A DNA stretch of 64,000 nt from Verrucomicrobiota bacterium (GTDB lineage: Bacteria; Verrucomicrobiota; Verrucomicrobiia; Methylacidiphilales; JBCCWR01): assembly GCA_039192515.1 (NCBI GenBank), contig JBCCXA010000009.1, forward strand, positions 925 to 64,924, read 5' to 3'. Both the position numbers and the translations under genes were made by a program. Below the pieces are notes generated by a model that was not told the origin of the DNA, did not search any database, and saw only the letters and a program-made list of their open reading frames with translations. Shown here piece after piece: positions 40,494 to 61,100 of this stretch (within the stretch, counting starts at the first letter, position 1; each line of letters starts with the position of its first letter).

Positions 40494-41153
40494 TTAAATC
40501 CGCTTGGTGTCATAGCTTGTGAATGTTAGTTGATGTTCCTTCGCCCAAAGGATTAAATTTTCTACGGCATCTGGTAGCCAAGATTTGTCAATAGAGACAC
40601 TGTGACAGTTTTCATGCAACACTATGGCGCCGCCTTTGTTTTTTAGAAGTCTCTTTTTGATTTGATCCATTTTCTGTTTGCCAGATGCCGGGTCGGACCA
40701 AGCTTCGCTGATAAAGAAAGTTAGGTAGGCAGTGTCTAAAGATAACTCTTTTAATAAGTGTTTCACTGCCGGAGTGACTATTCCCCATGGAGGGCGGAAA
40801 AGTTTTGGAGACTTGTTATGAGCTTTCGTTATTGTTTTAAATAATTTCTGTGTTTTATCTGTTTCGTGTAAGAGGCGTTTTTTAGACAGAAGGGGCCAGG
40901 GAGTATGCGAATAGGTGTGATAAGCAACGGAATGGTTTTCATCGATAGCTCTTTTAACAATCGCAGGATGTTTTTTTATATTTCTTCCAATGTAGCAGAA
41001 AGTTGCAGGTATCTGGTGGCTTTTAAGCACATCGAGCAGTTGATTCGATATGCTTATATTTGGATTTGGACCATCATCAAAAGTCAAAATGATTTTGCCT
41101 TCTCCAGCTGGCCAATGCTTTGGTTCTAAAATGGTTGAAAGCATGCAGCTCAA
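40494..41153 (-). CDS. Polysaccharide deacetylase (NodB/CE4)
   Basis: LTFDDGP, HTYSH, LFRPPWG, IVLHE. Confidence 0.88.
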   Translation of the reverse strand: MSCMLSTILEPKHWPAGEGKIILTFDDGPNPNISISNQLLDVLKSHQIPATFCYIGRNIKKHPAIVKRAIDENHSVAYHTYSHTPWPLLSKKRLLHETDKTQKLFKTITKAHNKSPKLFRPPWGIVTPAVKHLLKELSLDTAYLTFFISEAWSDPASGKQKMDQIKKRLLKNKGGAIVLHENCHSVSIDKSWLPDAVENLILWAKEHQLTFTSYDTKRI

Positions 41154-41194
41154 TTAAAAGGCGTGGAATTCATTTTGTAAACAGCTGCGTTTTT

Positions 41195-42592
41195 CTAAAC
41201 CCTGTAAGTAAGATCCTTGTAAGTAGTGAGTGGCCACTGCTCTGGTGATTGGCAAATATCTTGTAGTAAAATGAGTAGCCAAGAGCAATCTTGGTATTGA
41301 TGCATGCCAGTTTTAATGAGCTTTAGAAGTTTATTTGTCTCTTTGTTTATAATTGTACTTTTACAAGAGCAGAGCCAAGCCAGTAGGCCTTTAGCATCTA
41401 GGCTAAATTCGTTAAGCTCTGCCTTGTCTTTAGCAATCTTGGAGTTAGATAAAAGCCATTCAATTTGGTGGCTATTGTCAAGGGGTAGGATAGAAAGCTG
41501 CTCACCTTTTCTTTCTTTTGCAAATAAAAGAACAGAGAGAGATATTGGATCCCAGTCATTGAGATCTGTTTGTTTTGAGGTGTTTTGTTCCAGGAAAAAA
41601 TGAGCGAGCCATAACCATGACGTAGCGAATGCTTGGTATAACTCAGGCTGGCAATAAACGCCAACCTCAATGGTATTTTCAAGATCCTTTAGCACCTGCT
41701 TGGAAAATCTTTTGAGCTCGATCCAGTTTTCTTGTTTCATGTAATACTGGCAAAGGTAAAAGGATGCTGAGATGTAGTGAGGGTAAGCCTTAAGGATTTC
41801 TTGTGCGCTACGAAGTCCCATCTCGTATTTATTCTGTTGTGAAAAATAAACTAAAAAATTTCCAAAATCTTGTCTCCAGTAATTATTTAACAGGCGCTCT
41901 TCAGTGGAGTAAGTTTGGTTAATGAGCTGGAAACGTTGTTCAAACTCTTTGTTTTCACCAGTGATAAGGAGATAAGACATAAGCTGGCAAAGGCGAGACA
42001 AATCAGGCTTATCTCCTTTGACAAGAGGTCGTAGACGCTTGAGCATTCGTTCCCCTTTTTCTTGGCGCAATTTGGCGTCCCACATGTATCCATAGTGAAT
42101 CATCTTTCCATTTAAATGGACCATGCCTTGTCTTTGGTTTAGCTGTGGGTGAACCTCTCCTTCAAATCGTAAATCATCAAAACGCCGGAAAACTCGTGTC
42201 GTTCGCACAGTGTTAGATGTGCCTTGTGGCATCTTGTTCTCTTCTAGAAATGTTATGGCATTAATACTGTTGTCTTGGTTTATATTACGAAGTTTGTTAA
42301 TCAACTCTACTTGTAGCCCGGAGGAAAGTTCCTGGTCAGCATCCAAAACCAAAACCCAGCTCCCGGTGGCGATTTTGAGAGACTCATTACGTGCGGCAGC
42401 CTCATCTCCATTCCAGGCAAAGAAACCCGTTTTAGCCTGATAACTCTCAGCAATTTCTAGTGTTTTATCAGTGGAGCCTGTGTCGATAATCACGATCTCC
42501 TGCGCAATTTCTTTGACGCTATCCAAGCAGCGAGGAAGATTCTTTTCCTCATCTTTAACGATCATAACAACACTAAGCAATAGATTTGACAT
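41195..42592 (-). CDS. GT2 glycosyltransferase with helical (TPR-like) C-terminus
   Basis: LSVVMIVKDEEKNLPRCLDSV, DTGSTD, AARNESL, LVLDADQ, FEGEVHPQL, HYGY. Start placed at ATG 42592. Confidence 0.88.
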   Translation of the reverse strand: MSNLLLSVVMIVKDEEKNLPRCLDSVKEIAQEIVIIDTGSTDKTLEIAESYQAKTGFFAWNGDEAAARNESLKIATGSWVLVLDADQELSSGLQVELINKLRNINQDNSINAITFLEENKMPQGTSNTVRTTRVFRRFDDLRFEGEVHPQLNQRQGMVHLNGKMIHYGYMWDAKLRQEKGERMLKRLRPLVKGDKPDLSRLCQLMSYLLITGENKEFEQRFQLINQTYSTEERLLNNYWRQDFGNFLVYFSQQNKYEMGLRSAQEILKAYPHYISASFYLCQYYMKQENWIELKRFSKQVLKDLENTIEVGVYCQPELYQAFATSWLWLAHFFLEQNTSKQTDLNDWDPISLSVLLFAKERKGEQLSILPLDNSHQIEWLLSNSKIAKDKAELNEFSLDAKGLLAWLCSCKSTIINKETNKLLKLIKTGMHQYQDCSWLLILLQDICQSPEQWPLTTYKDLTYRV

Positions 42593-42630
42593 AGTATTTT
42601 GAGCGCTGTGTCGCTCTACCAAGATGGTGC

Positions 42631-44544
42631 TTAACTAGAAGAAATAAAGATGTTATATCTTTCCAGTAAAGTGCCAGCAGTCTCAAAGAGTCTGATATAG
42701 GCCTTGTTGAGATCAACAGTTGCTGCTAGCTCCCGAACTTTAGCTTTATGAAGATCACGTCTAAACTTAAAAAGAGTATTTTCAGTGGTGAGACCTTTTT
42801 CAAGGCGTATTTCTTCCTCTTCATAGGAACGTTGAGCATTGGCATGAAAGAGTTGCATGGCCTCAAGGCGTTCTCGGTTAGATTCTATGATGGCAATAAG
42901 TTGTTGAAAGGCCAATGAGGTTTGTAGTTCGAGATTTTTTAGTTCTAGTATACTTTGTCTCTTTCGGTGTTGTGCTTCGTGCTTGCGACCAATGGCTTCG
43001 TCATTGCCGAGGGGAATGGAGAAGACCGCTCCGACGGACCATTCGGAGCCTTGACCTCCGAAAGATCGCGTGTAGCTACCCCCAATGCTAGGAGACAAGC
43101 CATTTATTCCGTAGGTGCCTTTAAGATCGAGTTGAGGCCAGACCTGGTTCTCGGCAAAAACGAGTCTGATATCTTCTCGCTCAACTTTTCGTTTAGCGAT
43201 TTTATATGCGGGGCTCGAGCTGAAGGCCTCGGCAACCAGATTGTTATAATCTAGATCAATATGGGGGATGATAAGCTTAGTTGTTGGAATAAAGACTGAA
43301 GTTCTATTAGGTGTGGGGTGGTTAGTCGTGAGAATTTGAAGTTCGGTCTGTTTGGCAAAGACTTCATTACGAGCTAGGACTAGTTCTTCAATGACTTCGG
43401 CAAGAGTTGCTTCTGCTTTATTGAGGTCGCCGGGGGAAACAAGCCCTTTTTCGAGTAGTTCCCTTTTTTCTTTGGCTAACTCAGAGGCTAGATCTTGCTC
43501 AAGCTCCTTGAGCTTTAAATTTCTCACGTGATACATGAGATCAAAGTAGGCTTTTAAGGTTTCGCTAACTGTTTCGAGCATAGCTGCTTCTAGCTCGAGC
43601 CTAGAGATCAATTTGTTTTTTCTAGCAACACGGATTTCTGCGAGGTTTACATCTGTTCCAAAATTACGGAGTAGCGGCTGGGTAAGTGTCATCCCGGTAA
43701 AGGTGCTATATTCTGGGCTAAATAAAGAAAGAGCGCTTTGCTGGGGACCTGACTCAATCAAGGTATTTCTTAGAATGTCTTGTTTAGTAAAGAGATCATA
43801 TTCAGTGCCCGTAGGGAGTTTGCCCTCTAACGATAGTTCATAGCTCCAGTTTTCTTCAGTGAAAATACGAGGATCGCTACTTAGAATAACTGCATTACCA
43901 CCACTACTAATAAATTCCTCGGTATTTTGAGGAGTACGTATCTTTTCATACTGTCCTTCAAAGGAGAGCTCGGGGTTAAATCCCCCAATCTGTTGTCGAA
44001 GAACATCTTGGGCGATGGAGATATCCAGTTTCTTCACTTCAACATCTAAGTTTTTTGTTAGAGATGAAGAAATAGCAGATGGCAAGTCCAGTGTAATTTC
44101 TGGCAGAGCTTCTAAAGTTGGGATTTTGTATTCATCTTCCGAGGAACTAGATGAGCCGTAGTATGTCGGCAAAGAATTCGGAGGCACGGAATCTGACTCT
44201 GGGATATCAGGTGGTGAGCCTGTAGGGGATTCGTTCAGTTCGGTTGTTTCTGTGGTTAGAGTTGGCTCTGTATTAGAACTGACAGCATCCAGGCCATCCG
44301 GCTCAAAAGGGTCGTCGTCCGAGCTAGTAGTGGTCGTTGTTGTTGAACTACTGGTGCTAGCAATCAAGCTTCCTGCAAGAAGCGCATGTTTCTTGGCTAG
44401 TGGAGACTCGAGTTTAGCAACCTGAGTAGAAGAGGATTTAGAGCAACCGACAACAACAACAGCAAAAATGAAGCTAGAGAGCAAAACATATATGCTCGTT
44501 ATCTTTAGTTTATTTTTATTTCCAAGCATGACATTTTTTAACAA
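42631..44544 (-). CDS. TolC-family outer membrane channel with long Ser/Thr/Pro-rich N-terminal extension
   Basis: TLTQPLLRNFG, AENQVWPQLDL, WSVGAVFSIPLG and heptad helices. Lipobox-like VVVVGC followed by a low-complexity linker. Confidence 0.88.
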   Translation of the reverse strand: MLKNVMLGNKNKLKITSIYVLLSSFIFAVVVVGCSKSSSTQVAKLESPLAKKHALLAGSLIASTSSSTTTTTTSSDDDPFEPDGLDAVSSNTEPTLTTETTELNESPTGSPPDIPESDSVPPNSLPTYYGSSSSSEDEYKIPTLEALPEITLDLPSAISSSLTKNLDVEVKKLDISIAQDVLRQQIGGFNPELSFEGQYEKIRTPQNTEEFISSGGNAVILSSDPRIFTEENWSYELSLEGKLPTGTEYDLFTKQDILRNTLIESGPQQSALSLFSPEYSTFTGMTLTQPLLRNFGTDVNLAEIRVARKNKLISRLELEAAMLETVSETLKAYFDLMYHVRNLKLKELEQDLASELAKEKRELLEKGLVSPGDLNKAEATLAEVIEELVLARNEVFAKQTELQILTTNHPTPNRTSVFIPTTKLIIPHIDLDYNNLVAEAFSSSPAYKIAKRKVEREDIRLVFAENQVWPQLDLKGTYGINGLSPSIGGSYTRSFGGQGSEWSVGAVFSIPLGNDEAIGRKHEAQHRKRQSILELKNLELQTSLAFQQLIAIIESNRERLEAMQLFHANAQRSYEEEEIRLEKGLTTENTLFKFRRDLHKAKVRELAATVDLNKAYIRLFETAGTLLERYNIFISSS

Positions 44545-44596
44545 CCCGCGAAAGTCTTTCAGATTCGCAAAGGCTTGTCAACTTTTGCTGGTTAAC

Positions 44597-46573
44597 CTAG
44601 ACCGCAGAAGATTTCCCGGAAAAGGATAGGTTTTCGTCTAACCAGGTGTCATGTTTCAGAACACGCTTTCTTGTCTTAAAAGCCATGCTTGAGGCCATCC
44701 ACTGAGCCCATGCGAATAAATGAATAATCCAACTGGGCAAAGGTTTAGGTAAGGTTCCACCCACAGCTTTTAAGAGAGAAAGTGGTAAAAACCGTAGGGT
44801 TAATTCGTCGTTAATAGATACAATAAACCGGGCGCTCCCAGGATCTCCTTGTCGGCCTGATCTACCAATGAGTTGTCTATCAATGCGAGATGACTCATGG
44901 ATCTCAGTAGCAATGACGTGAAGTCCTCCTAATTCTCTCACTCCGTGTCCGAGCTTTATATCTGTGCCACGTCCAGCCATGTTTGTGGCAATGGTTATCC
45001 GGCCAAGTTGTCCGGCTTTAGAGATAATTTGAGCTTCGTCTTCCTGCCGGAGGGCATTGAGGATTTCGAATTGTAACCCCATCTTACTGAGATGTTTGGC
45101 CACCAACTCGCTGCTTTGAACAGACCGTGTGCCGATTAGGAGGGGGCGATCCTTTTGATGCAATTTTTTTGCCTCGCAAGCAACAGCTTTCCATTTGTCG
45201 TTCTGAGAGGCAAAAATTTGGTCAGGGTATCTTTTGCGTAATGCAGGGCGGTGTGTAGGAATTTTTAGGACTGCTAGATGGTAGATTTGCCAGAGTTCTT
45301 CCTTGGATTCATATGCGGTTCCAGATAGACCCGAGAGGTTTGGATAACAACGAAAAAATCTTTGAAAGCTCATAGAAGCTATAGATTCATTAGGAGGTGT
45401 GATTTCTACGTTTTCTTTAGCTTCCACCGCTTGGTGCAATCCTTGTTGCCACGTGCGATGCTCCATAATCCGACCAGTGAATTCATCTATGAGTTCTATT
45501 TTTCCCTCGTTTATGGCATAATGAACATCTTTTAGATAAAATTCTCTTGCAATTAAAGCGGTACGAATGAGGTCGTGGAAGCGCTCCCTGTTTCGCCAAG
45601 CAGCAGGGAGAATCGAAGCTTTGCTAAAGAGTCGATCATTAATTTGAGATACGATACTGATTTCTCGGAACTTGAAATCAACCTGATAGTCTTGACCACG
45701 TTTTAGGGGTGCAATCAGCTTTTTAGCGTGAATACTGGCTGATTCGAGATCTTTATTCCTGACGCGTTGTGAAATAATAAGTGGTGTCACGGCTTCGTCA
45801 ATGAGGACGCTATCTGCTTCATCCACAATGGCAAAATGTAAACCACGCATGACTACACTTTGATGGCGGTTTTGTCTTTTTGCCAGATTACGAATCAGGC
45901 GGCGAGTGGGGTCATAGGGAGTACTTAAGGCTATACGATCTCTTAAAAAATCAGCTAAAGCTTCTTTTGGTGTAGTGTAGGTGATATGTGCTGCATAGGA
46001 TTTCTCGCGCTCATTAGCAGGCATGTGACCAGTGACGGATCCAACCGATAAGCCGAAAAAACGGAATAAAGCCTCCATCTCTTGACTGTCGCGTGAGGCT
46101 AAGTAATCGTTGGCTGTAATGACATGGCAAGGTCTACCTGTGCTTCCCATGAGAGTAGCAGCTAGTGCGACAGTAAGTGTTTTCCCCTCTCCGGTGGCCA
46201 TTTCAGCTAAATATCCATGGAATAGGCTGGCCGCACTAGCAAGTTGAACCGGGTAAGGACTTAGTTGTAGTGCTCGCTTTGCTCCGAGAACTAGCATAGC
46301 AAGACCTTCTGCTACGGCTTTATCTGTGGCAGGGAATTTGAGGAAATGAAGGCGCAGGTTTTTTAAACGGGATACAACCTCTTTGTCTGTAATGGACTCA
46401 TTTCGCTCAGCTATATGCTGAGCTTTCTTAGCTAATTCTAAAAAGTATTTTAGTGAACTTTTGCGGCGCTTGTATTTACCATGGAGTGAAAAAATAAAGG
46501 CATCAAGGCCTTGATAGCTTTTGCATTTTTCACTTGCTTTGAGCCGCCAATAATCTAACTGGAAATTTGACAT
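44597..46573 (-). CDS. Truncated SecA-like DEAD ATPase (NBD1-PPXD-NBD2 only)
   Basis: EMATGEGKT, TANDYLASRD, IVDEADSVLIDEA, GLHQAVEAKE, ATNMAGRGTDI and RIDRQLIGRSGRQGDPG. The protein ends about 70 aa after NBD2, so it lacks the wing domain and two-helix finger. Confidence 0.88.
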   Translation of the reverse strand: MSNFQLDYWRLKASEKCKSYQGLDAFIFSLHGKYKRRKSSLKYFLELAKKAQHIAERNESITDKEVVSRLKNLRLHFLKFPATDKAVAEGLAMLVLGAKRALQLSPYPVQLASAASLFHGYLAEMATGEGKTLTVALAATLMGSTGRPCHVITANDYLASRDSQEMEALFRFFGLSVGSVTGHMPANEREKSYAAHITYTTPKEALADFLRDRIALSTPYDPTRRLIRNLAKRQNRHQSVVMRGLHFAIVDEADSVLIDEAVTPLIISQRVRNKDLESASIHAKKLIAPLKRGQDYQVDFKFREISIVSQINDRLFSKASILPAAWRNRERFHDLIRTALIAREFYLKDVHYAINEGKIELIDEFTGRIMEHRTWQQGLHQAVEAKENVEITPPNESIASMSFQRFFRCYPNLSGLSGTAYESKEELWQIYHLAVLKIPTHRPALRKRYPDQIFASQNDKWKAVACEAKKLHQKDRPLLIGTRSVQSSELVAKHLSKMGLQFEILNALRQEDEAQIISKAGQLGRITIATNMAGRGTDIKLGHGVRELGGLHVIATEIHESSRIDRQLIGRSGRQGDPGSARFIVSINDELTLRFLPLSLLKAVGGTLPKPLPSWIIHLFAWAQWMASSMAFKTRKRVLKHDTWLDENLSFSGKSSAV

Positions 46574-46584
46574 CGGAAGGGTAG

Positions 46585-48738
46585 TTACAACTTGAGTCTG
46601 TCTTGAAGAACTTGCCTGATCAATCTCCAGCCTTGTTTGAGTAATGGTTCGTAACCAATATGAAAGCGAATTTGTCCTCTACGGTGTTGGACAAAATAAA
46701 CATTTTCTTGATTCTCAAGCTCTGCATAAATCATAAAGAAAGGCTCTTTGCTTGTAACCCCCTGAGGATCTTCTTGTGAAACTTCGATTTCACCACCACC
46801 ACCCCAACCTAGAGCGGGTGAAGGCAATGCTTTCTGCTCTCCGGGAATTCGAATCATATTGAGCACTTCAATTTCTTTACCAGCTTGACCTATCAGTCGG
46901 ACTGAAGCACCGCGTATCGATTGAAAGAAAACATCCGCAGCTTGTGGTTGCTCTACGATAGCAACAAAGCGATAGCTAGTAGGTTTGAGGAAGACTCCGA
47001 TTGGGGTGCCCTTGTGAAACCAGGCGCCGATTTGCTGGTCTAATTCAGGGGCGGCCCAAACTCCGTCATAGGGAGCTGTTATATTGAGGCGTTCTTTTTC
47101 CTCCAGATAGAATTTTAGATTTTTCCGTGCGCTTTCCAGTTTAAGCTGGACGGGTTTGATGCGAACATTTTCTTTAAAGGCTAGATTTTGCAAGGTAGCC
47201 CTAGATGCGCGTATCTCGGCCTGAGCTTGTTCAATTTTCCAGTCTAGTGCTAAGTCGCTAAACACCATGAGCTTATCACCTGCCTCTACTTTGGTGCCTG
47301 GACGCGTATAAACTTGCTCTAAGCGACCAGAGGTAGGCGCAAATAGCCGAAGGAATTTATCAGCTTCTACCACCCCGTGTGCTCTGGCATGCAGTGGAAA
47401 GGGTATAATGGCCAATAGGGTGATCGTGCCTACGAGAATTGAAAAAACGATGGTCAGGGCTCGGTTTCTAGTAGCGTCTAAGCCCGGGTCTGTAAACAGA
47501 TAGTAAAAAAATTTGTACAAAGGCATAGCTAACCAAATAAATGAAGTGATAGCTGCTAAGACAATACCTAGCCCAAAGAATTGGTCAGCCACGATGAGAG
47601 CAATACTCGTTAATAGAAAAATACGATAAAGGCCTGCACTTATTCCATAGATAGCCAACCAAATGCTTTCCGAGTTAGATTGTGCAGCAGGGAGCATGTG
47701 ACGGCATTTAAAGATAAATTTTTCCAAAAGGTATTTCAATTGCTGGTTGGAGCGTTGAGACATATTAGGGATTTCGATAAGGTCTGAGAGAATGTAATAG
47801 CCATCAAAACGCAAAAGAGGATTTATGTTAAATAAAAAGGTAGTGATGGATGCGATGACCATCAAATTATAGGCCATGGCATTCATAGTGGTATCCGAGG
47901 TATTGGCCCAAATGATGACAGCAATAGCTGCGAGGAAGAATTCAAAGATCATTCCGGCGGCTGCGACGTAAATGCGATTCCATTTACTGCGAAAGCCCCA
48001 ACTTGTTGTAGCGTCGACATAGGGAATGGGTGTGAAGATTAGTAACATGACACCTAACGTGCGCACTTCTCCTCCTAAGACCCGGCATATCAAACCATGA
48101 CCGAGTTCATGCCAAAACTTTGCAATCACACCACAGAGATAGAGCAGGAAAAGGTTTCCAGGAGATAGAAGGCCCTCTGTTTGATCAAGCGCAGCGTCCC
48201 AGTTTTCAAAGAGTTCTTTAGCTCCTAGAAAAATAACAATGGACCAAAGGATCATTCCCCAACGATTTAAGAGAGGCCTGAAAAAGGGAAGCAGTGCATT
48301 AATAAATGGAGTAGGGTCACAAAGAGAAATTTTAATAAAGAGGAAATTAAGAAATTTGCTTCGTAACTCCTTATGTTCTGCTTTACGGCGTCTTTCTGAC
48401 ATAGCTGAGACATCAGGAGGAAAGTCGGAGTGAATGAGGTTACCCTGTGTCAATTGGGCAAGAAGTCGGACGACTTCTTGCTGTCCGGGCGTTTCATCAG
48501 GATAAATTTCTAAACATTCATTCCAGACTTCTTCGATTGTTCGTTCGATTCGTAGTCTAGCTACAAAATGGTAGCCAGCAGGAGAAAGACGGAAGAATTT
48601 ATTGCTAAATGGTTCGCTTAAAACATACCAAGGCACTCCTCTATAGCTTTGACGTTCAACTCGAACACTGGGATGTAGCTGCGCACTACGACTAGCAATA
48701 CGGTGCCAAGACTCACTGAATAATGAACTCCGATTCAT
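46585..48738 (-). CDS. M50 (site-2 protease) membrane protein fused to an HlyD-like adaptor; PqqD/RRE-like N-terminus
   Basis: HELGH and NINPLLRFDGYY motifs, several TMs, and a C-terminal barrel-sandwich (APTSGRLEQV...ITAPYDGVW). Confidence 0.85.
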   Translation of the reverse strand: MNRSSLFSESWHRIASRSAQLHPSVRVERQSYRGVPWYVLSEPFSNKFFRLSPAGYHFVARLRIERTIEEVWNECLEIYPDETPGQQEVVRLLAQLTQGNLIHSDFPPDVSAMSERRRKAEHKELRSKFLNFLFIKISLCDPTPFINALLPFFRPLLNRWGMILWSIVIFLGAKELFENWDAALDQTEGLLSPGNLFLLYLCGVIAKFWHELGHGLICRVLGGEVRTLGVMLLIFTPIPYVDATTSWGFRSKWNRIYVAAAGMIFEFFLAAIAVIIWANTSDTTMNAMAYNLMVIASITTFLFNINPLLRFDGYYILSDLIEIPNMSQRSNQQLKYLLEKFIFKCRHMLPAAQSNSESIWLAIYGISAGLYRIFLLTSIALIVADQFFGLGIVLAAITSFIWLAMPLYKFFYYLFTDPGLDATRNRALTIVFSILVGTITLLAIIPFPLHARAHGVVEADKFLRLFAPTSGRLEQVYTRPGTKVEAGDKLMVFSDLALDWKIEQAQAEIRASRATLQNLAFKENVRIKPVQLKLESARKNLKFYLEEKERLNITAPYDGVWAAPELDQQIGAWFHKGTPIGVFLKPTSYRFVAIVEQPQAADVFFQSIRGASVRLIGQAGKEIEVLNMIRIPGEQKALPSPALGWGGGGEIEVSQEDPQGVTSKEPFFMIYAELENQENVYFVQHRRGQIRFHIGYEPLLKQGWRLIRQVLQDRLKL

Positions 48739-48754
48739 ATTTTCTGATTGTATC

Positions 48755-50176
48755 CTAAAGCCACAATTTTAATCTTAAGAAATCAATAAGGCGATGGGTC
48801 ATCATGTAAAGGGGAGGCTTGGTGCCAGCATTGATTTTGACAATACCTGTCATGCCTGGGCGCCACCATTCATCCGGTGGACATTCGATGCTGCAGCGAA
48901 CATAAAAGACATTTTTTTTGTCGCGAGCAACTGCACTGGGCTCGATGAGTCTCACGGTGATGGGGTACTTGATTTCCGGGCGGCTCTTAAAAGCAATAGC
49001 TCCATCAGCTTTGACTAGGACTTCTTGAATATCCTCCTCTGGGATCATTGCTTGAGTATAAAGGTCTTCTAAACGGGCGATTTTCATAAGGACATCACCC
49101 TTTTCAACTGGAGCACCAATTTGTTCAGTAAGAGCTCCTTCGACGATGACACCGTCAAATGGGCTCACGATTTTTGAACGGCTTAATTTATAGCGGGTTT
49201 GTTTGAGTTCTGATTCAGACTGAGCTGCTTTAGCTGTGGCTATATGCATGTCACCAAGACTACTTTGACCAAGTGCGACTTGGGCTTCGCTTCGGTAGCG
49301 TTGCATAGTAGCCATGACTTCACTTTCTTGGAGTTTAAGTTCGCGAGTATCTAGGGCAATGAGTGGTTCCTCCTTTTTTACTTCCTTACCGGGAATGACA
49401 TGGACTTCTTTGATGTAGCCTTGGAAAGGAGCGGGTAGGTTGATGAGGGCATCCGTTTTTAAAATAAACTCTCCACTGACTTTGTAAGGCCATGGGTATA
49501 GGCATAAAAAAAGAAGCACGATTGTAACGAGTAGGCCCCCAAATTTCCACCATGTGTGTTCTGGTCCAAGAACGGTAGCCAACCAGCTGCGTGTTTTGTT
49601 CTCTCCGAGAAACCACCAACCTCTAGCGTATTTATGAAGTTCTTCGAGCCTTGGTGTAACTAGGTCACAAATTAACCGAAGTGCTTCTACTTCTGTTTCT
49701 TTAAACTGCGCGTTTTCTCTTTGCAAAGTGAGTGTACCAATGACTTGGGAATTTATTCTCAACGGCATTGACAGCATATTTGTTGCACCAAATTTTTGAT
49801 GAAAGTTTTGATGTTCTCGAGTGATGGTGAGTTCGTTGTCTTTAGTGGGCCAAACAACATTTTCATCTTGATCGGATGCTTCCAGCATTACCCGTTCGAG
49901 TTCTTGTGCGATCTCAGTTCTTTTTTCGATTTTATTTGAGTGACTTGTTGCTTTAAGTCTCATTTCATCGTCTTGCAAGCGGCCAATAGAAACACGTGTA
50001 CAACGAAAGTGAAAAACCAATTCATTGCAAAGAGAGAGTGCTGCGTGATCGTACCGACTACTTTGGTTGAGTAACGAGATCAGGTCCAGGGTGATCCATA
50101 GAGGTCCTTCTGGCATTTGATTATGCGTCTTAGAGGGCAATGAGGATGTTGTTTCAGACTCTATACTTTCTGACAT
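48755..50176 (-). CDS. GAF-domain / HlyD-family periplasmic adaptor fusion
   Basis: N-terminal GAF-like region (LSMPLRINSQVIGTLTLQR), one TM, then LPAPFQGYIKEVHV..G..V and IVSPFDGVIVEG. Confidence 0.85.
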   Translation of the reverse strand: MSESIESETTSSLPSKTHNQMPEGPLWITLDLISLLNQSSRYDHAALSLCNELVFHFRCTRVSIGRLQDDEMRLKATSHSNKIEKRTEIAQELERVMLEASDQDENVVWPTKDNELTITREHQNFHQKFGATNMLSMPLRINSQVIGTLTLQRENAQFKETEVEALRLICDLVTPRLEELHKYARGWWFLGENKTRSWLATVLGPEHTWWKFGGLLVTIVLLFLCLYPWPYKVSGEFILKTDALINLPAPFQGYIKEVHVIPGKEVKKEEPLIALDTRELKLQESEVMATMQRYRSEAQVALGQSSLGDMHIATAKAAQSESELKQTRYKLSRSKIVSPFDGVIVEGALTEQIGAPVEKGDVLMKIARLEDLYTQAMIPEEDIQEVLVKADGAIAFKSRPEIKYPITVRLIEPSAVARDKKNVFYVRCSIECPPDEWWRPGMTGIVKINAGTKPPLYMMTHRLIDFLRLKLWL

Positions 50177-50283: not shown

Positions 50284-51039
50284 ATGTTCATGCGATGGAA
50301 TTTGATATGGTTGATCAGCTTCTTTGGGGTAGTGGAGACACAAGCGCAGAAGTCAGATTTTAAAAATAGCTTAGGTATGTTGTTTGTGACAGTTCCGAAC
50401 ACAGAAGTTTATTTCTCTGTCTATGAAACAAGCGTAAAAGATTATCAGGTTTTTGTAAAAGAAACGAAGCGCACAGTTAAAAAGCCTTCTTTTAAGCAGA
50501 ATGGGAATCATGCAGCAGTCAATGTCAGCTGGGAGGATGCGAAAGCTTTCTGTTACTGGCTAACGGCAAAGGAGAGAAAAGAGAAAATTATCTCAGCTAA
50601 ACAGTATTATCGATTACCCAACGATAAGGAATGGAGCTTAGCTTCTGGGATTAAGGGTGCAGCAGATGAATTCTCTTTCGAAGATAATTTAGATTTTGAA
50701 TATCCTTGGGGAAAAGAATGGCCACCGCCCCCAGATGCTGGAAATTACAGCCCTGATTTGTTTGTAGATAACTACTCCCATACCTCTCCGGTAGGCAGTT
50801 TTAAGCCTAACAAACTTGGTATTTATGATCTTGGAGGCAATGTTTGGGAGTGGTGTGAAGATATTTTTAATCAATCTCCAGATTATCGAATTCTTCGAGG
50901 GGCCTCCTGGCGTATGCGTTTGCCAAATGACCTTCTCTTGACCAATAAAATCGGTAACCGTCCGGACCTTAGGCTTTCCGTGTATGGCTTCCGAATTGTT
51001 TTGACGAAAGATAAAAAAGAAGAAGACGCACTTCAGTAG
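50284..51039 (+). CDS. Exported FGE-sulfatase (SUMF1/EgtB/PvdO) domain protein
   Basis: VNVSWEDAKAFCYWL, YRLPNDKEW, YPWG, PVGSFKPNKLGIYDLGGNVWEW, GFRIVL. Confidence 0.88.
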   Translation: MFMRWNLIWLISFFGVVETQAQKSDFKNSLGMLFVTVPNTEVYFSVYETSVKDYQVFVKETKRTVKKPSFKQNGNHAAVNVSWEDAKAFCYWLTAKERKEKIISAKQYYRLPNDKEWSLASGIKGAADEFSFEDNLDFEYPWGKEWPPPPDAGNYSPDLFVDNYSHTSPVGSFKPNKLGIYDLGGNVWEWCEDIFNQSPDYRILRGASWRMRLPNDLLLTNKIGNRPDLRLSVYGFRIVLTKDKKEEDALQ

Positions 51040-52139: not shown

Positions 52140-55100
52140 ATGGCTAAGACAAAAACTAAAAATCGGAATCGCTGGAAACAACCCCGAAAGCACAAGAAAA
52201 TCCCAAGGCATCTGCAATATGATTTGCAAACATTAGAGCCGAGGCTTTTATTTTCTGCCGCCTTGTATGATCCTGGAGATGGCGGCGGTTCTGGGGATAG
52301 TGATGTCGCAACGAATATAGAAACGCAGTTAACGGATACTTTTACTTTTCTCGGCAAGTATGCAGACGAGATAGGAACCGAAGAGGCAGCAGATTCCTCA
52401 GCAGTTCCTTTTTTCCAATCAAGCGTTGAGGATTTATTAGGTTTTGAGATTGAAGACTTTTTAAAGGGTGGGTCAGGTAGTGATGCATATAGCCAAGTAG
52501 TTGATGACTACTTTGACAATGCGAGTCCGGATTCCACAGGCCTTGCTGCTGACCTACAGAGCGCAGTGCAGAACACCTTTGGAGTTGGATCTGTTACGGA
52601 TACAGGCTCGGACAATGATAATCTGATATTAAATTTCTCTATCGATCTGAATGAAGTTACAAAGGACCTAAAATTTGGCACCGAAGCTCAGGAGTTTTTC
52701 TTAGAATATGGAGCAGGTGCCCAAGTAAAGTTTAATGCGGATGCCATAACGTTCTCTATTAAAGCTGATTTAAGTGGAGTGGATAATGTGGCAACAGATG
52801 AAACAGATAACTCCTCTAACGATAGCCTTTATTCAGTCGAGTTTGGTGGCAGTGATAAAGACACGTTATCTATAATGGGTTCTTCGAGTCATACCAATAG
52901 TCTAGATCCCTTAACCGGATTTGGAGTTGGTTTTGGACTCATTGATGCTCGGGATGATGTAATGGACTCGGGTGGTTATGTTGCTAACACAGGCGGGACT
53001 TTCTCTTTTAATCTTCAACTTGATTTTATCTTGGAGAGTTCTTTGTCTGCTGATAGTAAGCTCAGTCTGGATGAGCTCAGAGCAATTGATACTGCTTCAT
53101 CATATGAAAGCATCTACAGAGTGGATACTCCAACCGGTGCGGGTGTTAATGAAGGTGAACTCTTTTTACCAATCCAAGTAGCTAACCCAGCAGGGGATGA
53201 GTTTATTAGCGGTATTGATGGTATCACCGGAGACTTTACCTTTACCGATAACGATCTTTTTGATAGCCGTTCACCCTTGGTTCAAGCAAGTGATCAGACA
53301 TTAGCTTCTTTTTCGAGGATGACTGCTGATGATCTTTTACAGTTTGTTAAAAACGCTACCTATCTCTTTGGTCAGAGTTCAGATCTAACAGAGATGCAAA
53401 ATTTTCTTCCATTACTTGATCTTAACCTGGGCCAAGCGTATGATTTCCTGGAGGCTTCAGAAAAAGCATTAGTTGATCCTTTAGTCATCATTGAGAATGT
53501 ATTACGCATCAAAGATGCGCCATCAACAAGTGGTGATCCACTTGATTACACGGGTAATAGTAGCTTTCAAATTTATGTCTTTTACCAAGGTGTCTTAGAA
53601 GGTGGTGCCTTGCAAATCATTACTCTCAATGCGAATAGCTCCCGTGCTTCACTGCAAGATGTTGCCGATGACTTAAATATTGCGCTCGCTGCCGCTGCCG
53701 CAGGGACCCAAAGAGTCTTCGCACGGGTAACCGAAACCGCTTCTCCTCGGCTAGAGTTGTATGGTGTAGATGCGGATACGACCTTCTTCATTAGTAGTGT
53801 GAATCCAAGTGGAGAAACATTAGATCTTGGTATTGATCCTTATGGACTGGTCTTTGCTCGAAACAATGGAACGATCTCGAGCAATCAAAATGAGAAATAT
53901 CAGCTACAAGAAGTTAAGGTAGAGTCTTCCACCGCCATAGAGGTAAGTCATTTTACAACACTAAAGACTTTTACTGTAGCAATTGGCTCTGACAGCGCGA
54001 CCACCATTACTTTGCCTCCAAGTGTTTATGGCTCTATGGCAGATTTTGTATTTGCCTTACAATCGGCTTTAGCGGAGGCTGGCGTCTACGATGCGAGCAC
54101 GGGCGAGGGAATTGAGGTGGATGAAGCTACTTCCGGGGATAGTCAGGGCTTCGGGGTAACTTTTTCTATTAGTGGTTCTCGTTCAGGGGAAACACTAACG
54201 CTTGGGGGTAGTGATGTGGGGATTTTCCAGTTAAGTGCGACAAGTGGAGCGAGCTCCTATACCTCGGCAACTCCTGTAGAACTCTCTCCTTTTGAGTCGG
54301 GGTTATCTCTGACTATTTCATTCAGCTCTCAGCAGGCTGGGCTATTGGCGACAACTACAGAGACTATTTCGATTCCCGCAGGAAAATATGCGTCCGTCGA
54401 TGATGTGATTTTTGCTATTCGCGAAGCTCTTCAAAGCAATGGTCTTTATGATGCTTTTACGAATACGGGGATATTGATTGAGAAGATTCCTGTGGGTGGT
54501 GGCGAAGGTATACGTTTTTATACCTCGGCAGAGGTTTATGAGCTAACCATTTCTACCTCTAGTAATAGCCTCATAGGATTATCCAGTACGAGTGAAAGCG
54601 CTACGGCGGCTTACATTGATATTGATGTGAAGCAAGATGGCAATGCATCCGCAACGACTACTCGAGTTTACATCAATGGCAACACAACGACAGATCTTTT
54701 AGGAAATTCCACCAACACCTCTGTTTCAGACTTTGTTAGTGATGTGCAAAGTGCTTTGACTCGAGCAGGTTTAAGGGACTCTCTTTCTGGAACTGGAGTG
54801 GATATTCGCTCCTTTGACCAGAATGGGAGTTCAACTGATTATTTAGAATTCTTTGCATTAAATCCAGGTGCCGGTTCTGGCTTTATCCAAGAAATTTCGA
54901 CTGGAGCTTCTGCTTCATTTGGTATGGATGACTATAACTTAGATGGATTGGCTGCCCAAGTAATGGCTTTATCTGCCGAGGATCAAAAACCTCGGTTTAG
55001 TAATGTGCAAGAATTTGTCGCGCTCCTTAATCAATCTACGGGATTACCACAGGTCAGTGTGGACCTTAATGGCTCCGCTGATGGTGTGGAGATCAGCCGT

Positions 55101-58100
55101 TGGTCTGCAAATACGACCAGTGTTGAGGTTACAGGTGGAACCGGGAAAGGTTTTCTCAATTTAGATGCGGATTTAGTAGATAATGCTAACACAGAAATCA
55201 CTTCATCCAGTGCTGTAGATCTAAGTAACTTTACGGTCGATACGACCTTATTCGTTTCTGTAAATGGGGCTGCTGCAGTGACAGCTACCATTAAAGGAGA
55301 TACATATAATTCTATGGCTGATTTAGTGGACGCTATATCCATAGCGCTACGTGAAGCAGGGTTGGCAGATGGTCTTCTTTCCTCCCCTGCAGTCTATAAT
55401 GGCGGGGACATTGTCAATGGGGTCTCTCCTTATTTCACCTTTCCCATCCACCTCTACGTAGACGAATACTTTGGGGATGAAGGGTTGGCAGATCTCACTG
55501 ATGTCGATATGCGATTTGAGTCCAGCTATGGAGAAACAGCGACGGGGCAGATAAGTAATCTATCAGCCGAAAAACAAGTCACGGTATCCCGCTCCTCAGA
55601 AATTAGTTTTGATTTGGGCCTCAATTTAATTCAGCCGAAAACAAGCAGTGAGGAGCTTGTCGTAGAACTACCCGTTATCATTCAAGACTGGGATGGGCAG
55701 CTTGATTCGTACGATGCTCTCTTTAAGGTGATACTTGACGATGGTGTGGTACACGACGTTCTCGTTTTAGCGAGTGATACGGCTCTTAACACAAGCACAG
55801 AAGACTTTGTTGCGAATATTAATGCCGCACTGAGTGCAGTTGATATCGGTGGTGGAGTTATGCTTAGCTCGCTGGTAGTAGCTTCTTTGGACATGGTCAA
55901 CGACTTTGAACGAGATGTGATTCGCTTCACAACCGTGGCGGGGTCAAGTCGTAGCTTAGCAGTCGAAGTTCCTGAATACATTTCAGAAGATACGACCTAT
56001 AATAATGATGCTGCCGTTAAGTTAGGTTTTACGACGAATGTTTCAACAGGTAATCTCGATGATTTTGATGTATTAGCGGGTGCTACGCAGATCGATGCTT
56101 CAGGAGTTCTTCCCAACAATCCGGATTATGATGTCTACTACCGCGTTAAGCTAGAGGACTCAGTTACGGGGGCAACAGATGCTTTTGTCTTTTCAACTAA
56201 GGCTACTGACACTTCGGGTAATACGAACCTAGCCCAGTTGATTGTTGACATAAACAATGCCCACAGCTCTGTAGATTTTGAGGCATTTGATAATGGAGGA
56301 AACTTAGGGTTCCAAATTCTTGGAGTAAATTACGATATTATTAGAGTTGATGTGGCTAAAAATCAATACTTGGCTACGGAAACAGACCCCATCATTGCCG
56401 ACAACCCCGTTGATGTAAGCGATTTTGTTCTAGCTACGGATGCATTTTTTGAGTTTATCCTACCTGATGGAACCAGTCAGATACTGACCATTGAAGTCGA
56501 GGACACAACAGATAACGCCAGTTTAGATGACTTGGTCAATGACCTCAATCAGGCGATCCAAGCAACTTCCGCCCTCATGGACAATGGGGTTTATCAAAAG
56601 ATTATCGCCTTCATTGAAGGCGTTGGGGGTAATAATCATTTAGCTTTCCGTTTAGATACGACAAATGTCTATCCCTCTGGTGGTGATTGGCGTATGACGG
56701 TCATTGCTCAATACAACGAGTCTGTTACGAATGCTGCAAGCTTTGAGCTGGCAATGGCGGAAGAGACTTATCGTGACACAAGGTATGCATTGATCGGACC
56801 TATTATTGGAAGCTTAGCTGATGCAGACAGTATTTTGGTTAATGATTTTCTATTGGATATTTCAATTAATGGCTCAGATTATGAAACAGTTACGGTTTTG
56901 GCCTCTGACACCTCGGCAAATACCAGCATTGGAGATCTCATTGCAGACATCAATACTTCCCTGGCTAATACTTCAATTACCGTGGCGGGCAATAGCTACA
57001 CGGTTAGCCAATTCATTGATGCTATTGCTTTGAGTGGAGGAGATGTAGTCCAGCTTGCAGTTAGGGATGATGCACCTGTGCCTTTGCTTAATGTTCGTTT
57101 TGATCCAACTACTGATTCTAACAATGGCTATATAGATTTAGGCTTTTCTTCAGAAGAGTCACAGATAGGTATCCGCGGTTCTGATGCCACTCTCGATAAT
57201 ATTTTCTTAACTGGCCGAGCGGAAGTTAGAGATGCAGACGTAAGTGGAAAAGGTTCCCTAGGTTTTGCAGATTTCAGCTTTGATCATACCGATTTTGATG
57301 CCATTACCGAAACAACTCTAGGACTCACTGGCAATATGACAAGTATGCTGGATTTAATGAGATACCTAGGGTCTTATGAAGCTGAGTATAGCGCAGTAGA
57401 GATAGATCATAGCCTAACCATTGAAGACGATACTTTTGCAAGAGTAGAGTTTCAGGATCTGGCTTTCTTGGAAGATAGTGTTACGGAAAATACTCTAACT
57501 GGCCTAACCTTTGATCCAACAAGCACGATAGTGCTTGCCTATCAACCTAATGGGAATGGGGCCTCTTCGAGCATAGGAGTAGGTGGCTCGGATTTATTCA
57601 AACTTCCTGAAGCTGACCTTTCTTTTAATAACACAAATGACATCGAGTTAATCAGTCGGCTGACTTTTGATGACATTGCGCTTTCTCTCTGGCATGTAGG
57701 GGATTTCATCAGTGACTGGATGAATAATGATCCTAATGGGCCATTTGCAGCTAATCTCTTTTTTGCCAAGACGGGAATCGTTGATGTTCAAGATTTTGGG
57801 GAAGAATTCAGCGCCATCATGGCGCAACTATGGGCTAATCCTCCTGAAAATTTACAGGAGGTACAGCGCGCTCTAGAGTCTGGACTAAACTTAGATGCGG
57901 GGGATGTGACGGTTGAACTGGTGACATCTGGAAGCGGTTCCACTTTCAATGCGAGTTTACGTGTGGCATTCGACTTCATCACGACCTTTGCCTCAACGCT
58001 TCCCCTTTACATTGATCTGGCAATGTTATCGGATCGCAGCTCTAACTCTGGCTTAGTCAAGCAGAGTTTACTAGGTCTCTCTTCATTATCGAGTAGTTTG

Positions 58101-61100
58101 TCTGATCCCATGGAAGTGGAGTTGGAGGGACTCTCTAAGCTCCAACTAGATATGGATCTTGTGCTAGTAGAGAACGGAGAAGTTATAGAACCAAAGGCTA
58201 TCCTGAATCAACCAAATTCAGGTGAGTTTTTTGAAACGAAATTTTTTGTAACTGGAGATTCGTACACAGGAGACCTTCCTGCCGGAGCTAACCGACTTAG
58301 ACTTGGTTACAGCTGGTTTGATGAGACAGGACGTGAAGTTCTAGCCCCTGACACAGGAACAGCCCCTGTTGGTGCAACTGTTGCGACGACAGGCGAGCTC
58401 GCAGCTACTTATGATGATGCAACAGATAGACTTACTTCTACGAGTGTCGGAGCCCTTGTCGTAGATGGAATCACGCTTACAGAACAAGGAAGCGACGGAG
58501 CACCTGGTGATTATGTCCTTGTAAAGGACCAAAGTGATCCTACGCAAAATGGTCTTTATGAAGTGATCGAATCTGGTGATGGCGCAACCGCTTGGATACT
58601 AGAACGCACTGATAGTGATTTGTCCTGGCTCAAGGTCAGTGTGAATTCAGGGTCTATCTTTGGGGACCGCATCTTCATGGTGAAAGATATTTCTAATGTT
58701 GATGTTGTTGCTGCTGCCACGACCTCTGTAGGAAATTCTTACAATCTTCAGTCATATCCTTTCCTCAATTATATTGATGCAGGTTCTAGCTTAACCATTG
58801 ATGGAGTGACCCCTGAGCATGGGGACTTTGTTTTACTTACAGGACAGCAATTGGGATCAACGGGTGCTCCTAATGGAGTTTATCAGGTTCAGATCAATTC
58901 AGGTACTTATGAGCTGTATCTTATGGACATTGGCCAAGGGACTATTGGGCAAGCGGATGTCACGGGTGGCTCTCTTGCCGGGAATTCTTATTTTGTCGAT
59001 TTCAATAATATTACAAACAACATTCAGCAGCGCGGTGTTGCAGAATTGACACCTTACAACGTTGTAGAGCTTCGCTCAGCTGCTGTAGCCGTGAGCGAAG
59101 GTGGAGAGGTGGCTTTACCAGATGTGAATGGCACACCGCAAATTTATGATACTGACGAAACGACTCTGGATGAAAATGATATTCCTGCAGCAGACTTTAC
59201 AGTTGAAGTTTCTACAACTGAGGAAGTCGCTGGTACATTTAGCGGCGGCACCATCACTTTGAATGTATTGTCCGCCCCAGTAATAGATGGTGTGACTTTA
59301 GCTGCAGGTGATTTGGTCATGGTGAATCATCAAGGGGATGGCTCTCAGAACGGTATTTACCAATTAACTGAATCCAGCGGAATTTGGACTTTAACTCGTG
59401 TGAGTACTTATGATGATTTATCAGATACCCTTAATGTAAAGGTCACGGTTGCTAGTGGGACGACATATGGCGGTTTCGAATTTAAAATGGCGGAGACAAT
59501 CTCTGAATTTAATGCCTCAATTGTTCGTTTTTCTAAGTTGATAAAGCCTGCTTCCTTTATCATCAACTTATCTGATTTTAATGGGACGAAAGATAAACAG
59601 CTCCCTTATCATGCGGTAGCCGCTTCTACATCAGATCTTTTGGTGAGTGCCGATGGCAGTTCGACTGCTTCTTTTGATTTATCAACGGGAACCATAACAG
59701 CAGACCAAAATGGCTCACTCAATCGCTACGTCACTCAAGTTTGGGACGAACAGACGGGGCAAGTGATTAATATTATCGGTATTGATGGGGTGACTAATTT
59801 ACGAGTGGGAGATCGAGTTTTGTTGAAGGATATTGGTCGAACCGAGCTCAATCCCTCAGGAGCTAGTTATGGTTCCTACACCGGTGATTATCGAAATGGT
59901 ATTTACGAGGTGGTATCTTTGGGAGGCAGCACCTCCCAATGGGAGTTAAAGCGCGTTGATTTTGCCGACGAGGCCTCTGAATTTGACCAGTTGAAGATTG
60001 GGGTTCAGCGTGGTAGCTACAATTTAGATACGCGTTATATTCAAACACTTTTTAATCCTCTCAGCTTAGGTGCAGGAACGAATATTGGATTCACGGATGA
60101 TATTGCTTTTGTTTATGGGAACTACGATAGTAACGGCAACTTAGTTGGTAGTTGGGTTGATTTTTCTGCTGACGGAAATGCGGCCGCCGCACTTCCCTTG
60201 AGTGTTGTCATGGTTCCATCTGGTGGCGGAGAGACGGTGATTACCAAAAACCTGGCTAGCCTAACTGATGATGAAAAAGAGGCACTAGGTCAACTTGGTG
60301 AAGCTATTCTGGAAGATGATCTTTATCTTGCGGCACCAGATCTAGATGCGTTGAAAATCTTTGTTGCAGATGATACCGATGCGTCTGACGATGGATTTGC
60401 TGGTTCTGGCCTGGAGAAATTTTTCGATACTTCAGATATAGCGGTGACTTTTGATCCACTACCGGATTTATTTCGCACGGTACCTCCCTCGGACGTACTT
60501 TCATTAGTTCGAGATTGGGTTTTTATGGGGGATGCATTAGATCTCGCCTTGTTTAATCTTCAATTTGCCATGGATCAGGCGCTAGGTATTGAGGTGCCTT
60601 TGCTCGGAACCAGTCTGCCTAGTTATACCGGCTTTATCGAGGAGTTTCGAGACGATTTAACAACCCGAGTACGTGAGAATTTGCGCCTAGACACTTTAAA
60701 GCCTGCCAATGCTATCCGCGATGCTCTCTACGCCGCACTTGGACCTAATGGTCTGGGGTATCTCACAGATATCACCGATATTGTGGTAATGGCAGGCGAT
60801 ACGGTTTGGGATATTGATAATACTTCGGATACGACTTTTTATGGGACAACGGCTGAAGGGCTCTTGTTTGAGAAGGTGAGTCAGAGTTCACTAGAGTTTT
60901 CCTTTAGCATTAGTAAGTCTTTGGATACTGATGCAACAGCAGTGGCGATTGACTCCATAGAAAGTGGAGATCAAAGTATCGGGCTGTCTATATCCAATAG
61001 CACGGTTTCTCAAAACAGTGACGGGGTGGTGACATCGACTACGGGCGGTGTTCAGCTCAAACGTTCGTTTGAGCTTAATTTTGGTTTCGGTATGGATATC

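Follow-up and report, generated by a model that had tools for sequence, protein, structure and literature searches.

Can a SecA motor that has lost much of the part with which SecA engages SecY still move polypeptides, and if so, along which conduit? The question is raised by a minus-strand gene at 44597..46573 of the stretch of DNA analysed here (the window; 64,000 nucleotides, positions 925 to 64,924 of contig JBCCXA010000009.1 in the assembly GCA_039192515.1 of a Verrucomicrobiota bacterium, lineage Methylacidiphilales), which encodes a SecA paralog that we refer to as the short SecA. To our knowledge SecA, among the best-studied of molecular motors, works only at the SecY channel. Evaluating the domains, homologs, neighbours and genome-wide associations of the short SecA, we interpret it, with a probability of roughly 60%, as the cytoplasmic ATPase of a trans-envelope exporter that resembles a type I secretion system (T1SS), dispenses with an ATP-binding cassette (ABC) transporter and serves a neighbouring giant protein that bears an N-terminal LEPR-XLL motif. 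This reading involves the following features of the window:

44597..46573, minus strand: short SecA paralog, 658 amino acids (aa), with nucleotide-binding domain 1 (NBD1), preprotein cross-linking domain (PPXD), nucleotide-binding domain 2 (NBD2) and about 35 scaffold-helix residues; C-terminal signature DTWLDENLSFSG
46585..48738, minus strand: M50-HlyD, a 717-aa fusion of a PqqD/RRE-like domain, an M50-like HExxH membrane protease and HlyD, with motifs HELGH and NPLLRFDG
48755..50176, minus strand: GAF-HlyD, a 473-aa periplasmic adaptor (HlyD/RND_mfp type) with an N-terminal cytoplasmic GAF domain, assigned by domain profiles; first gene of the operon
42631..44544, minus strand: TolC-like outer-membrane factor, 637 aa, with a lipoprotein-type signal, assigned by the OEP profile
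52140..63998, plus strand: 5' part of the giant gene, a 5,859-codon open frame on the contig, encoding a basic N-terminus and then LQTLEPRLLFSA (the LEPR-XLL motif)

Assessing the protein itself, we found Pfam matches to SecA_DEAD (residues 35-428, E 4.6e-85) and to P-loop_SecA (from residue 443, E 1.7e-54), together with the PPXD as a SecA_PP_bind match at 282-384 (E 5e-21) that covers positions 8-110 of the 110 in the profile and is also present in an AlphaFold2 (AF2) model. The motor motifs (Walker A MATGEGKT, whose lysine is K131, Walker B VDEADSVLIDEA, TNMAGRGTDIKLG and GRSGRQGDPG) and the arginine finger of the DEAD motor are invariant across an alignment of 37 family members, and in this the original prediction, which had described a 658-aa SecA paralog with both nucleotide-binding domains, the substrate clamp and intact helicase motifs, was borne out. 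The same Pfam scan returned no match to SecA_SW (PF07516), the wing/scaffold region that includes the two-helix finger. Compared with solved structures, the short SecA aligns with residues 12-604 of Bacillus subtilis SecA (E 1e-126), to which it is 38% identical over about 610 residues. In the AF2 model, for which the 37-sequence family alignment served as input (mean predicted local distance difference test score, pLDDT, 79.5), the part after NBD2 consists of a long helix (614-641), a second, shorter one (644-649) and a tail modelled at low confidence. Of the long scaffold helix, the initial three-quarters or so (about 35 residues) is thus retained, while the remainder of the scaffold, the wing domain, the two-helix finger and the C-tail are missing. 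The earlier claim that the SecY-engaging C-terminal half had been lost therefore stands for the wing, the finger and the C-tail but not for the scaffold helix, which is partly kept, and the C-terminal string quoted with it stopped five residues before the real end of the protein at HDTWLDENLSFSGKSSAV.

Searching with the AF2 model in Foldseek, all top matches were SecA structures, the best superpositions being with SecY-bound, substrate-engaged SecA (6ITC, 5EUL, 3DL8 and 3DIN; query-normalised template-modelling score, TMq, 0.68-0.71), and the engineered Escherichia coli truncation SecA-N68 (5K9T) was also in the list. SecA-N68 comprises nearly the same piece of SecA, the motor and the PPXD without the C-domain, and its ATPase activity is elevated and unregulated because the IRA1 region is gone; by this resemblance the ATPase of the short SecA may be deregulated as well. 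The two differ in that SecA-N68 is engineered and not functional in translocation, whereas the short SecA is natural and conserved, and possesses about 35 more scaffold-helix residues and a tail of its own.

A gene so much shorter than canonical secA, whose homologs carry inconsistent public names (DEAD/DEAH box helicase, hypothetical protein, SecA domain protein, preprotein translocase subunit SecA and, once, 'prepilin peptidase') and for whose family we found no dedicated NCBIfam model, might be a decaying or mis-assembled fragment without function, or might continue in another frame, an outcome that the original prediction had itself named as one that would overturn it. A frameshifted continuation was rejected, since only 52 bp separate the stop of the short secA (44597) from the start of the next gene (44544), which opens with the lipoprotein signal of the TolC-like protein, so that a hidden C-terminal half is impossible. 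The frame contains zero internal stops, and over 100 homologs of similar length (about 660 aa), 47-66% identical to the short SecA and carrying the labels Verrucomicrobiota, Methylacidiphilales, Proteobacteria or Deltaproteobacteria, were recovered from 5.8 billion proteins searched. Each of the 37 that we aligned (49-66% identity) stops 5-8 residues past a conserved signature, DTWLDExLSFxG, with R635, L639, D642 and L649 invariant near the C-terminus; at the other end, the family adds about 35 residues of its own ahead of the SecA core, with conserved positions among them. Because the end point, the C-terminal motif and (as described below) an operon found across phyla are all conserved, we consider a pseudogene or assembly fragment excluded for practical purposes. 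A second subgroup, found in Desulfobacterota (L046-L048, L050 and L051; G313, G295, G262 and G151), is truncated at the same point and carries another tail signature, MDExxxxLAFSGRxE.

Seeing a conserved short form, we evaluated the rest of the Sec machinery in the same genome (3.7 Mb in 107 contigs, 96% complete). SecA_DEAD (PF07517) matched two proteins, the short SecA (contig C9) and a canonical SecA of 996 aa (contig C6, C6:12113-15163), the latter being the sole SecA_SW match of the genome and extending about 253 residues beyond the point equivalent to the end of the short form. A separate full-length secA is thus encoded, and the possibility that the short gene is the only secA of the genome, a second outcome that would have overturned the original prediction, was rejected; each of 151 genomes in an even sample from the phylum of the window likewise encodes a canonical SecA, about 1,000 aa long. 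Between the two SecAs of our genome, identity is 50% across NBD2 and 34% across NBD1. Canonical SecA (TIGR00963 and NF009538; structures 1M6N, 3DIN and 6ITC) shares with the short form NBD1, the PPXD, NBD2, the start of the scaffold helix and all ATPase motifs; it differs in that the short SecA has the N-terminal extension of its family and is encoded with adaptor and TolC genes rather than with sec genes. As side observations on the 996-aa protein, its preprotein-binding region is enlarged by about 170 inserted residues, lying between residues 243 and 409, and its C-terminal tail holds no cysteines, so that it is apparently without the usual zinc-binding end.

Class-specific models likewise set the short SecA apart. 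It scored below the cut-offs of the canonical equivalogs (TIGR00963, 552.8 against 800 bits; NF009538, 551.5 against 814) as well as of the SecA2 models (TIGR03714, 465.7 against 930; TIGR04221, 425.1 against 725; TIGR04397, 529.1 against 1085; NF012136, 362.9 against 1100), and these NCBIfam SecA and SecA2 models matched it over only their first 550 or so positions. A whole-genome scan with PF00344 found one SecY (contig C4) and no second SecY (SecY2). With all SecA2 scores under cut-off and no second SecY in the genome, membership of a SecA2/SecY2 system was rejected. SecA2 motors (mycobacterial, SecA2/SecY2, and the Listeria, Bacillus and Clostridioides types) are likewise second, specialised SecA paralogs for few substrates, and SecA2 proteins keep the two-helix finger.

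These comparisons bear on an explanation in which the short SecA is a SecA2-like motor at the housekeeping SecYEG and the adaptors and TolC-like channel encoded beside it act only between periplasm and outside, as the second step of a two-step route. The PPXD and the scaffold helix of canonical SecA contact SecY, and the short SecA retains the former and part of the latter; its AF2 model, as a prediction, also resembles SecY-bound conformations. Set against this are the low SecA2 scores and single SecY just described, and the absence from every family member of the two-helix finger, the wing and the remaining scaffold.

To place the short SecA among its relatives, we built an unrooted FastTree phylogeny of 31 short and 14 canonical sequences from 583 shared columns. 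The canonical SecAs formed one clade (support 1.0) and all short forms fell across that branch with their phyla intermixed, a pattern consistent with the short form having arisen once and then spread horizontally together with its gene cassette. The family has been described before: secondary SecA_DEAD proteins beside a canonical SecA, patchily distributed in Planctomycetes, Verrucomicrobia, Proteobacteria and others, with the wing-scaffold domain lost completely or partially and with a conserved locus of Peptidase_M50/HlyD, GAF/HlyD, HlyD and sometimes OEP genes (Kamneva, Poudel and Ward 2015, PLoS One 10:e0129066, PMC4452313). Those authors proposed that the SecA_DEAD protein was perhaps 'co-opted as a functional ATPase' in replacement of an ABC transporter, with the M50 protein perhaps forming the pore, and described the biological role as 'completely unknown' (PMC4452313). 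As a second SecA_DEAD protein with wing-scaffold loss, with that locus content and with the corresponding tree position, the short SecA belongs to this family, and its truncation, its partners, the ATPase role and the idea of an M50 pore are already in print. The clade was placed near actinobacterial SecA2 (PMC4452313), a position that speaks for a motor acting at SecYEG. New relative to that work are the co-occurrence with LEPR-XLL giants described below, the conserved C-terminal signature and the second Desulfobacterota subgroup; LEPR motifs, giant proteins and cargo find no mention in the 2015 paper.

The gene neighbourhood points to the partners of the short SecA. It is the third gene in a minus-strand row of six (40494-50176) with gaps of 8-52 bp, and only 11 bp lie between the stop of the M50-HlyD gene and its start. 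In a profile scan, HlyD_D23/HlyD_3 matched M50-HlyD and GAF-HlyD, and OEP matched the TolC-like protein, while domain scans of the operon and its flanks found no ABC, resistance-nodulation-division (RND) or major facilitator superfamily (MFS) pump gene. The combination of OEP, short HlyD, GAF-HlyD, an M50 protein of about 718 aa and a SecA of about 661 aa recurred together in three records (L004, L006 and L008), namely a proteobacterial metagenome-assembled genome (MAG), a 2.25-Mb contig that we call planctomycete-like from the look of its neighbouring genes, and a Methylacidiphilales MAG. Within the 151-genome phylum sample, the short secA was present in 11 genomes as 12 copies (matched over their full length at 489-642 bits, most of the frames being about 660-715 aa long) scattered over nine families, and 12 of 12 were directly downstream of an M50-HlyD ortholog (at least 525 bits). 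Among 201 Desulfobacterota genomes it was present in seven, as nine copies, seven of which adjoin an M50-HlyD ortholog, these being all of the copies with both genes on one contig; some genomes of this group (G151, G313 and G062) hold two cassettes each. The short SecAs with the MDExxxxLAFSGRxE tail also adjoin M50-HlyD orthologs. The short secA was adjacent to no sec gene in the loci examined and always to M50-HlyD instead, which counts against a motor working at SecYEG. Coupling to the adjacent membrane protein, which the original prediction considered probable, is hence strongly supported by synteny (12/12 in the phylum and 7/7 on shared contigs in Desulfobacterota), a support that comes from gene order.

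We then evaluated which protein such a machine might export. The giant gene lies divergent from the cassette, 1.9 kb upstream of it, with a frame that is open from 52065 and a likely start at the ATG at 52140, and its product is the only protein with an N-terminal LEPRxLL motif in the genome of the window. LEPR-XLL proteins were detected by whole-genome scans with the NCBIfam profile NF012209 (cut-off 17 bits); a strict LEPR regular expression missed LETR and LEQR variants, and a relaxed pattern was used for neighbouring giant genes. In the phylum sample, above-cut-off matches in giant frames (615-20,466 aa) were found in 11 of 11 cassette genomes and in none of the 140 others, three of which had marginal matches in frames of only 38-138 aa (Fisher p = 6e-17, or 2e-14 counting the marginal matches). 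In Desulfobacterota, strong matches occurred in five of seven cassette genomes as compared with one of 194 others (p = 5e-8). Relatedness among the genomes is not corrected for in these p-values, though the spread of the cassette over nine families of the phylum speaks against one coincidence passed on by descent. LEPR-XLL proteins are also encoded in 3/3 additional cassette genomes of other lineages that were reached through their loci. Physical linkage recurs as well: giant genes whose products start ...LE(P/T/Q)RxLLSA adjoin the cassette in at least five other loci (L008 among them), and in three Desulfobacterota loci a giant LEPR-XLL gene adjoins it by match coordinates. On these sequence associations, the giant LEPR-XLL protein is the probable cargo of the cassette, a link between the short SecA and LEPR-XLL giants that we did not find in the published literature. 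The LEPR leader of the giant protein has no hydrophobic signal-peptide core, another point at odds with a two-step route through SecYEG. In Chlorochromatium aggregatum, two giant symbiosis proteins are reported to bear N-terminal LEPRxLL domains, and a horizontally acquired 'secA', Cag_1676, to share their co-expression cluster, the authors attributing export to a T1SS (2026 preprint, 10.64898/2026.03.19.712371). Should Cag_1676 be a short SecA, that cluster would be the first expression evidence tying motor to cargo.

Taken together, we picture a machine of four parts, comprising the short SecA, the RRE/M50/HlyD inner-membrane protein, the GAF-HlyD adaptor and the TolC-like outer-membrane channel. 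The cargo would be recognised by its N-terminal basic region and LEPRxLL motif, with the PqqD/RRE-like domain of M50-HlyD as the putative leader-binding part. Because the parts used by canonical SecA at the SecY pore have been lost, the short SecA would dock not on SecY but on the cytoplasmic parts of M50-HlyD and GAF-HlyD, its conserved N-terminal extension and its conserved, predicted-flexible DTWLDExLSFxG tail being candidate docking elements. From there it would feed the unfolded chain into the conduit from N- to C-terminus by ATP-driven translocation, and the M50 protease would remove the leader. For proteins of 5,000-20,000 residues, a signal at the N-terminus and a motor that works from N to C would go well together, since export could begin before translation ends.

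Such a machine would resemble known type I secretion in part. The LapBCE exporters of giant adhesins also combine HlyD-type adaptors and a TolC-type channel with very large cargo, and the C39 domain of peptidase-containing bacteriocin exporters is comparable to the putative leader-cleaving protease built into the inner-membrane protein of the cassette. Type I secretion differs in having an ABC transporter where the cassette has a SecA-derived ATPase and an M50-type protease, and in its C-terminal, uncleaved RTX-type signal, as opposed to the putative N-terminal signal (LEPR-XLL) of the cassette cargo. The most complete form of our proposal is that of a distinct secretion system, in which a SecA-derived motor exports LEPR-XLL giants (to about 20,000 residues) from N- to C-terminus, possibly co-translationally, through a conduit of M50/HlyD, GAF-HlyD and TolC-like protein that bypasses both SecYEG and ABC transporters; we advance this form only tentatively, at somewhat under an even chance.

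Several observations weigh against an ABC-less exporter driven by the short SecA. We know of no demonstrated inner-membrane channel for it, nor of M50-type proteases acting as protein-conducting pores, and the absence of a demonstrated alternative pore is at the same time a point for the housekeeping SecYEG; balancing this with the missing finger and scaffold, the class scores, the gene order and the leader, we regard a two-step route by way of SecYEG as unlikely. In current models of SecA the two-helix finger is central to pushing or gating, and with this finger absent the motor of the short SecA would have to work differently. The NF012209 match of the window is marginal: the N-terminal fragment scores 16.3 bits, short of the 17-bit cut-off, and the genome scan gives 18.9 bits. 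Two of the seven Desulfobacterota cassette genomes lack a detectable LEPR-XLL protein and one genome with a strong LEPR match lacks the cassette, all of these being drafts of uncertain completeness. In Methylobacterium extorquens AM1, named as a carrier of the locus (genes META1p2399-2402) and the source of the only published expression data, the SecA-like gene was silent or barely expressed in exponential growth (PMC4452313). Lastly, weaker M50-HlyD paralogs (22-29% identical, at most 218 bits) occur in 28 of the 151 phylum genomes without a short SecA, indicating that the membrane part can function without this motor.

This last pattern, in which the motor appears as an add-on to M50-HlyD and HlyD modules that occur without a SecA-like gene, would agree with the short SecA being not a translocase at all but a cytoplasmic, ATP-driven chaperone, unfoldase or checkpoint that holds on to the nascent chain of the giant protein or hands its leader to the M50 protease, with export driven by other means. 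That the substrate clamp is kept while the pore-inserting finger is lost would fit such a role too. Yet the full DEAD motor, arginine finger included, is invariant, which argues for processive ATP use; the 11-bp coupling to the M50-HlyD gene suggests a stoichiometric complex; and the cassette encodes nothing else that could supply the energy. Weighing these, we find a non-translocating role improbable. At four distant M50-HlyD loci that we checked, one or two extra HlyD genes stand alongside, and no alternative ATPase was found nearby, SecA-like and ABC genes also being absent there; one of the four continues with circularly permuted ATP-grasp / Alpha-E genes.

If an export machine built on the short SecA is indeed what this cassette encodes, a natural SecA without much of its SecY-engaging half, working on efflux-type adaptors, would demonstrate that the motor is reusable on another conduit and would tell which of its parts polypeptide movement truly needs. 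The cargo link would offer testable answers to how LEPR-XLL giants, among the largest bacterial proteins, exit the cell and to what purpose the orphan LEPR-XLL motif serves.

The remaining genes of the row and those between the cassette and the giant gene are as follows:

41195..42622, minus strand: GT2 glycosyltransferase with a long C-terminal extension, assigned by domain profiles, starting 8 bp after the tolC-like gene
40494..41153, minus strand: CE4 polysaccharide deacetylase, assigned by domain profiles, the last gene of the co-directional row
50284..51039, plus strand: FGE-sulfatase-domain protein with a signal peptide, between cassette and giant gene, 57% identical to the same-place gene of the Methylacidiphilales locus L008
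51044..51838, minus strand: 264-aa protein with no family match, 55% identical to the same-place gene of L008

A scan of the window for promoters and terminators gave results at chance level apart from a terminator-like hairpin (40441-40419) after the CE4 deacetylase gene. The best NCBIfam match of the GT2 protein, a weak one, is to the SunS peptide S-glycosyltransferase, and a long Ser/Thr-rich linker follows the lipobox of the TolC-like protein; the GT2 and CE4 genes together with this linker hint at glycosylation of cargo or channel. The FGE-sulfatase-domain and 264-aa proteins, given their shared place in two loci, may belong to the system as accessory components in Verrucomicrobiota.

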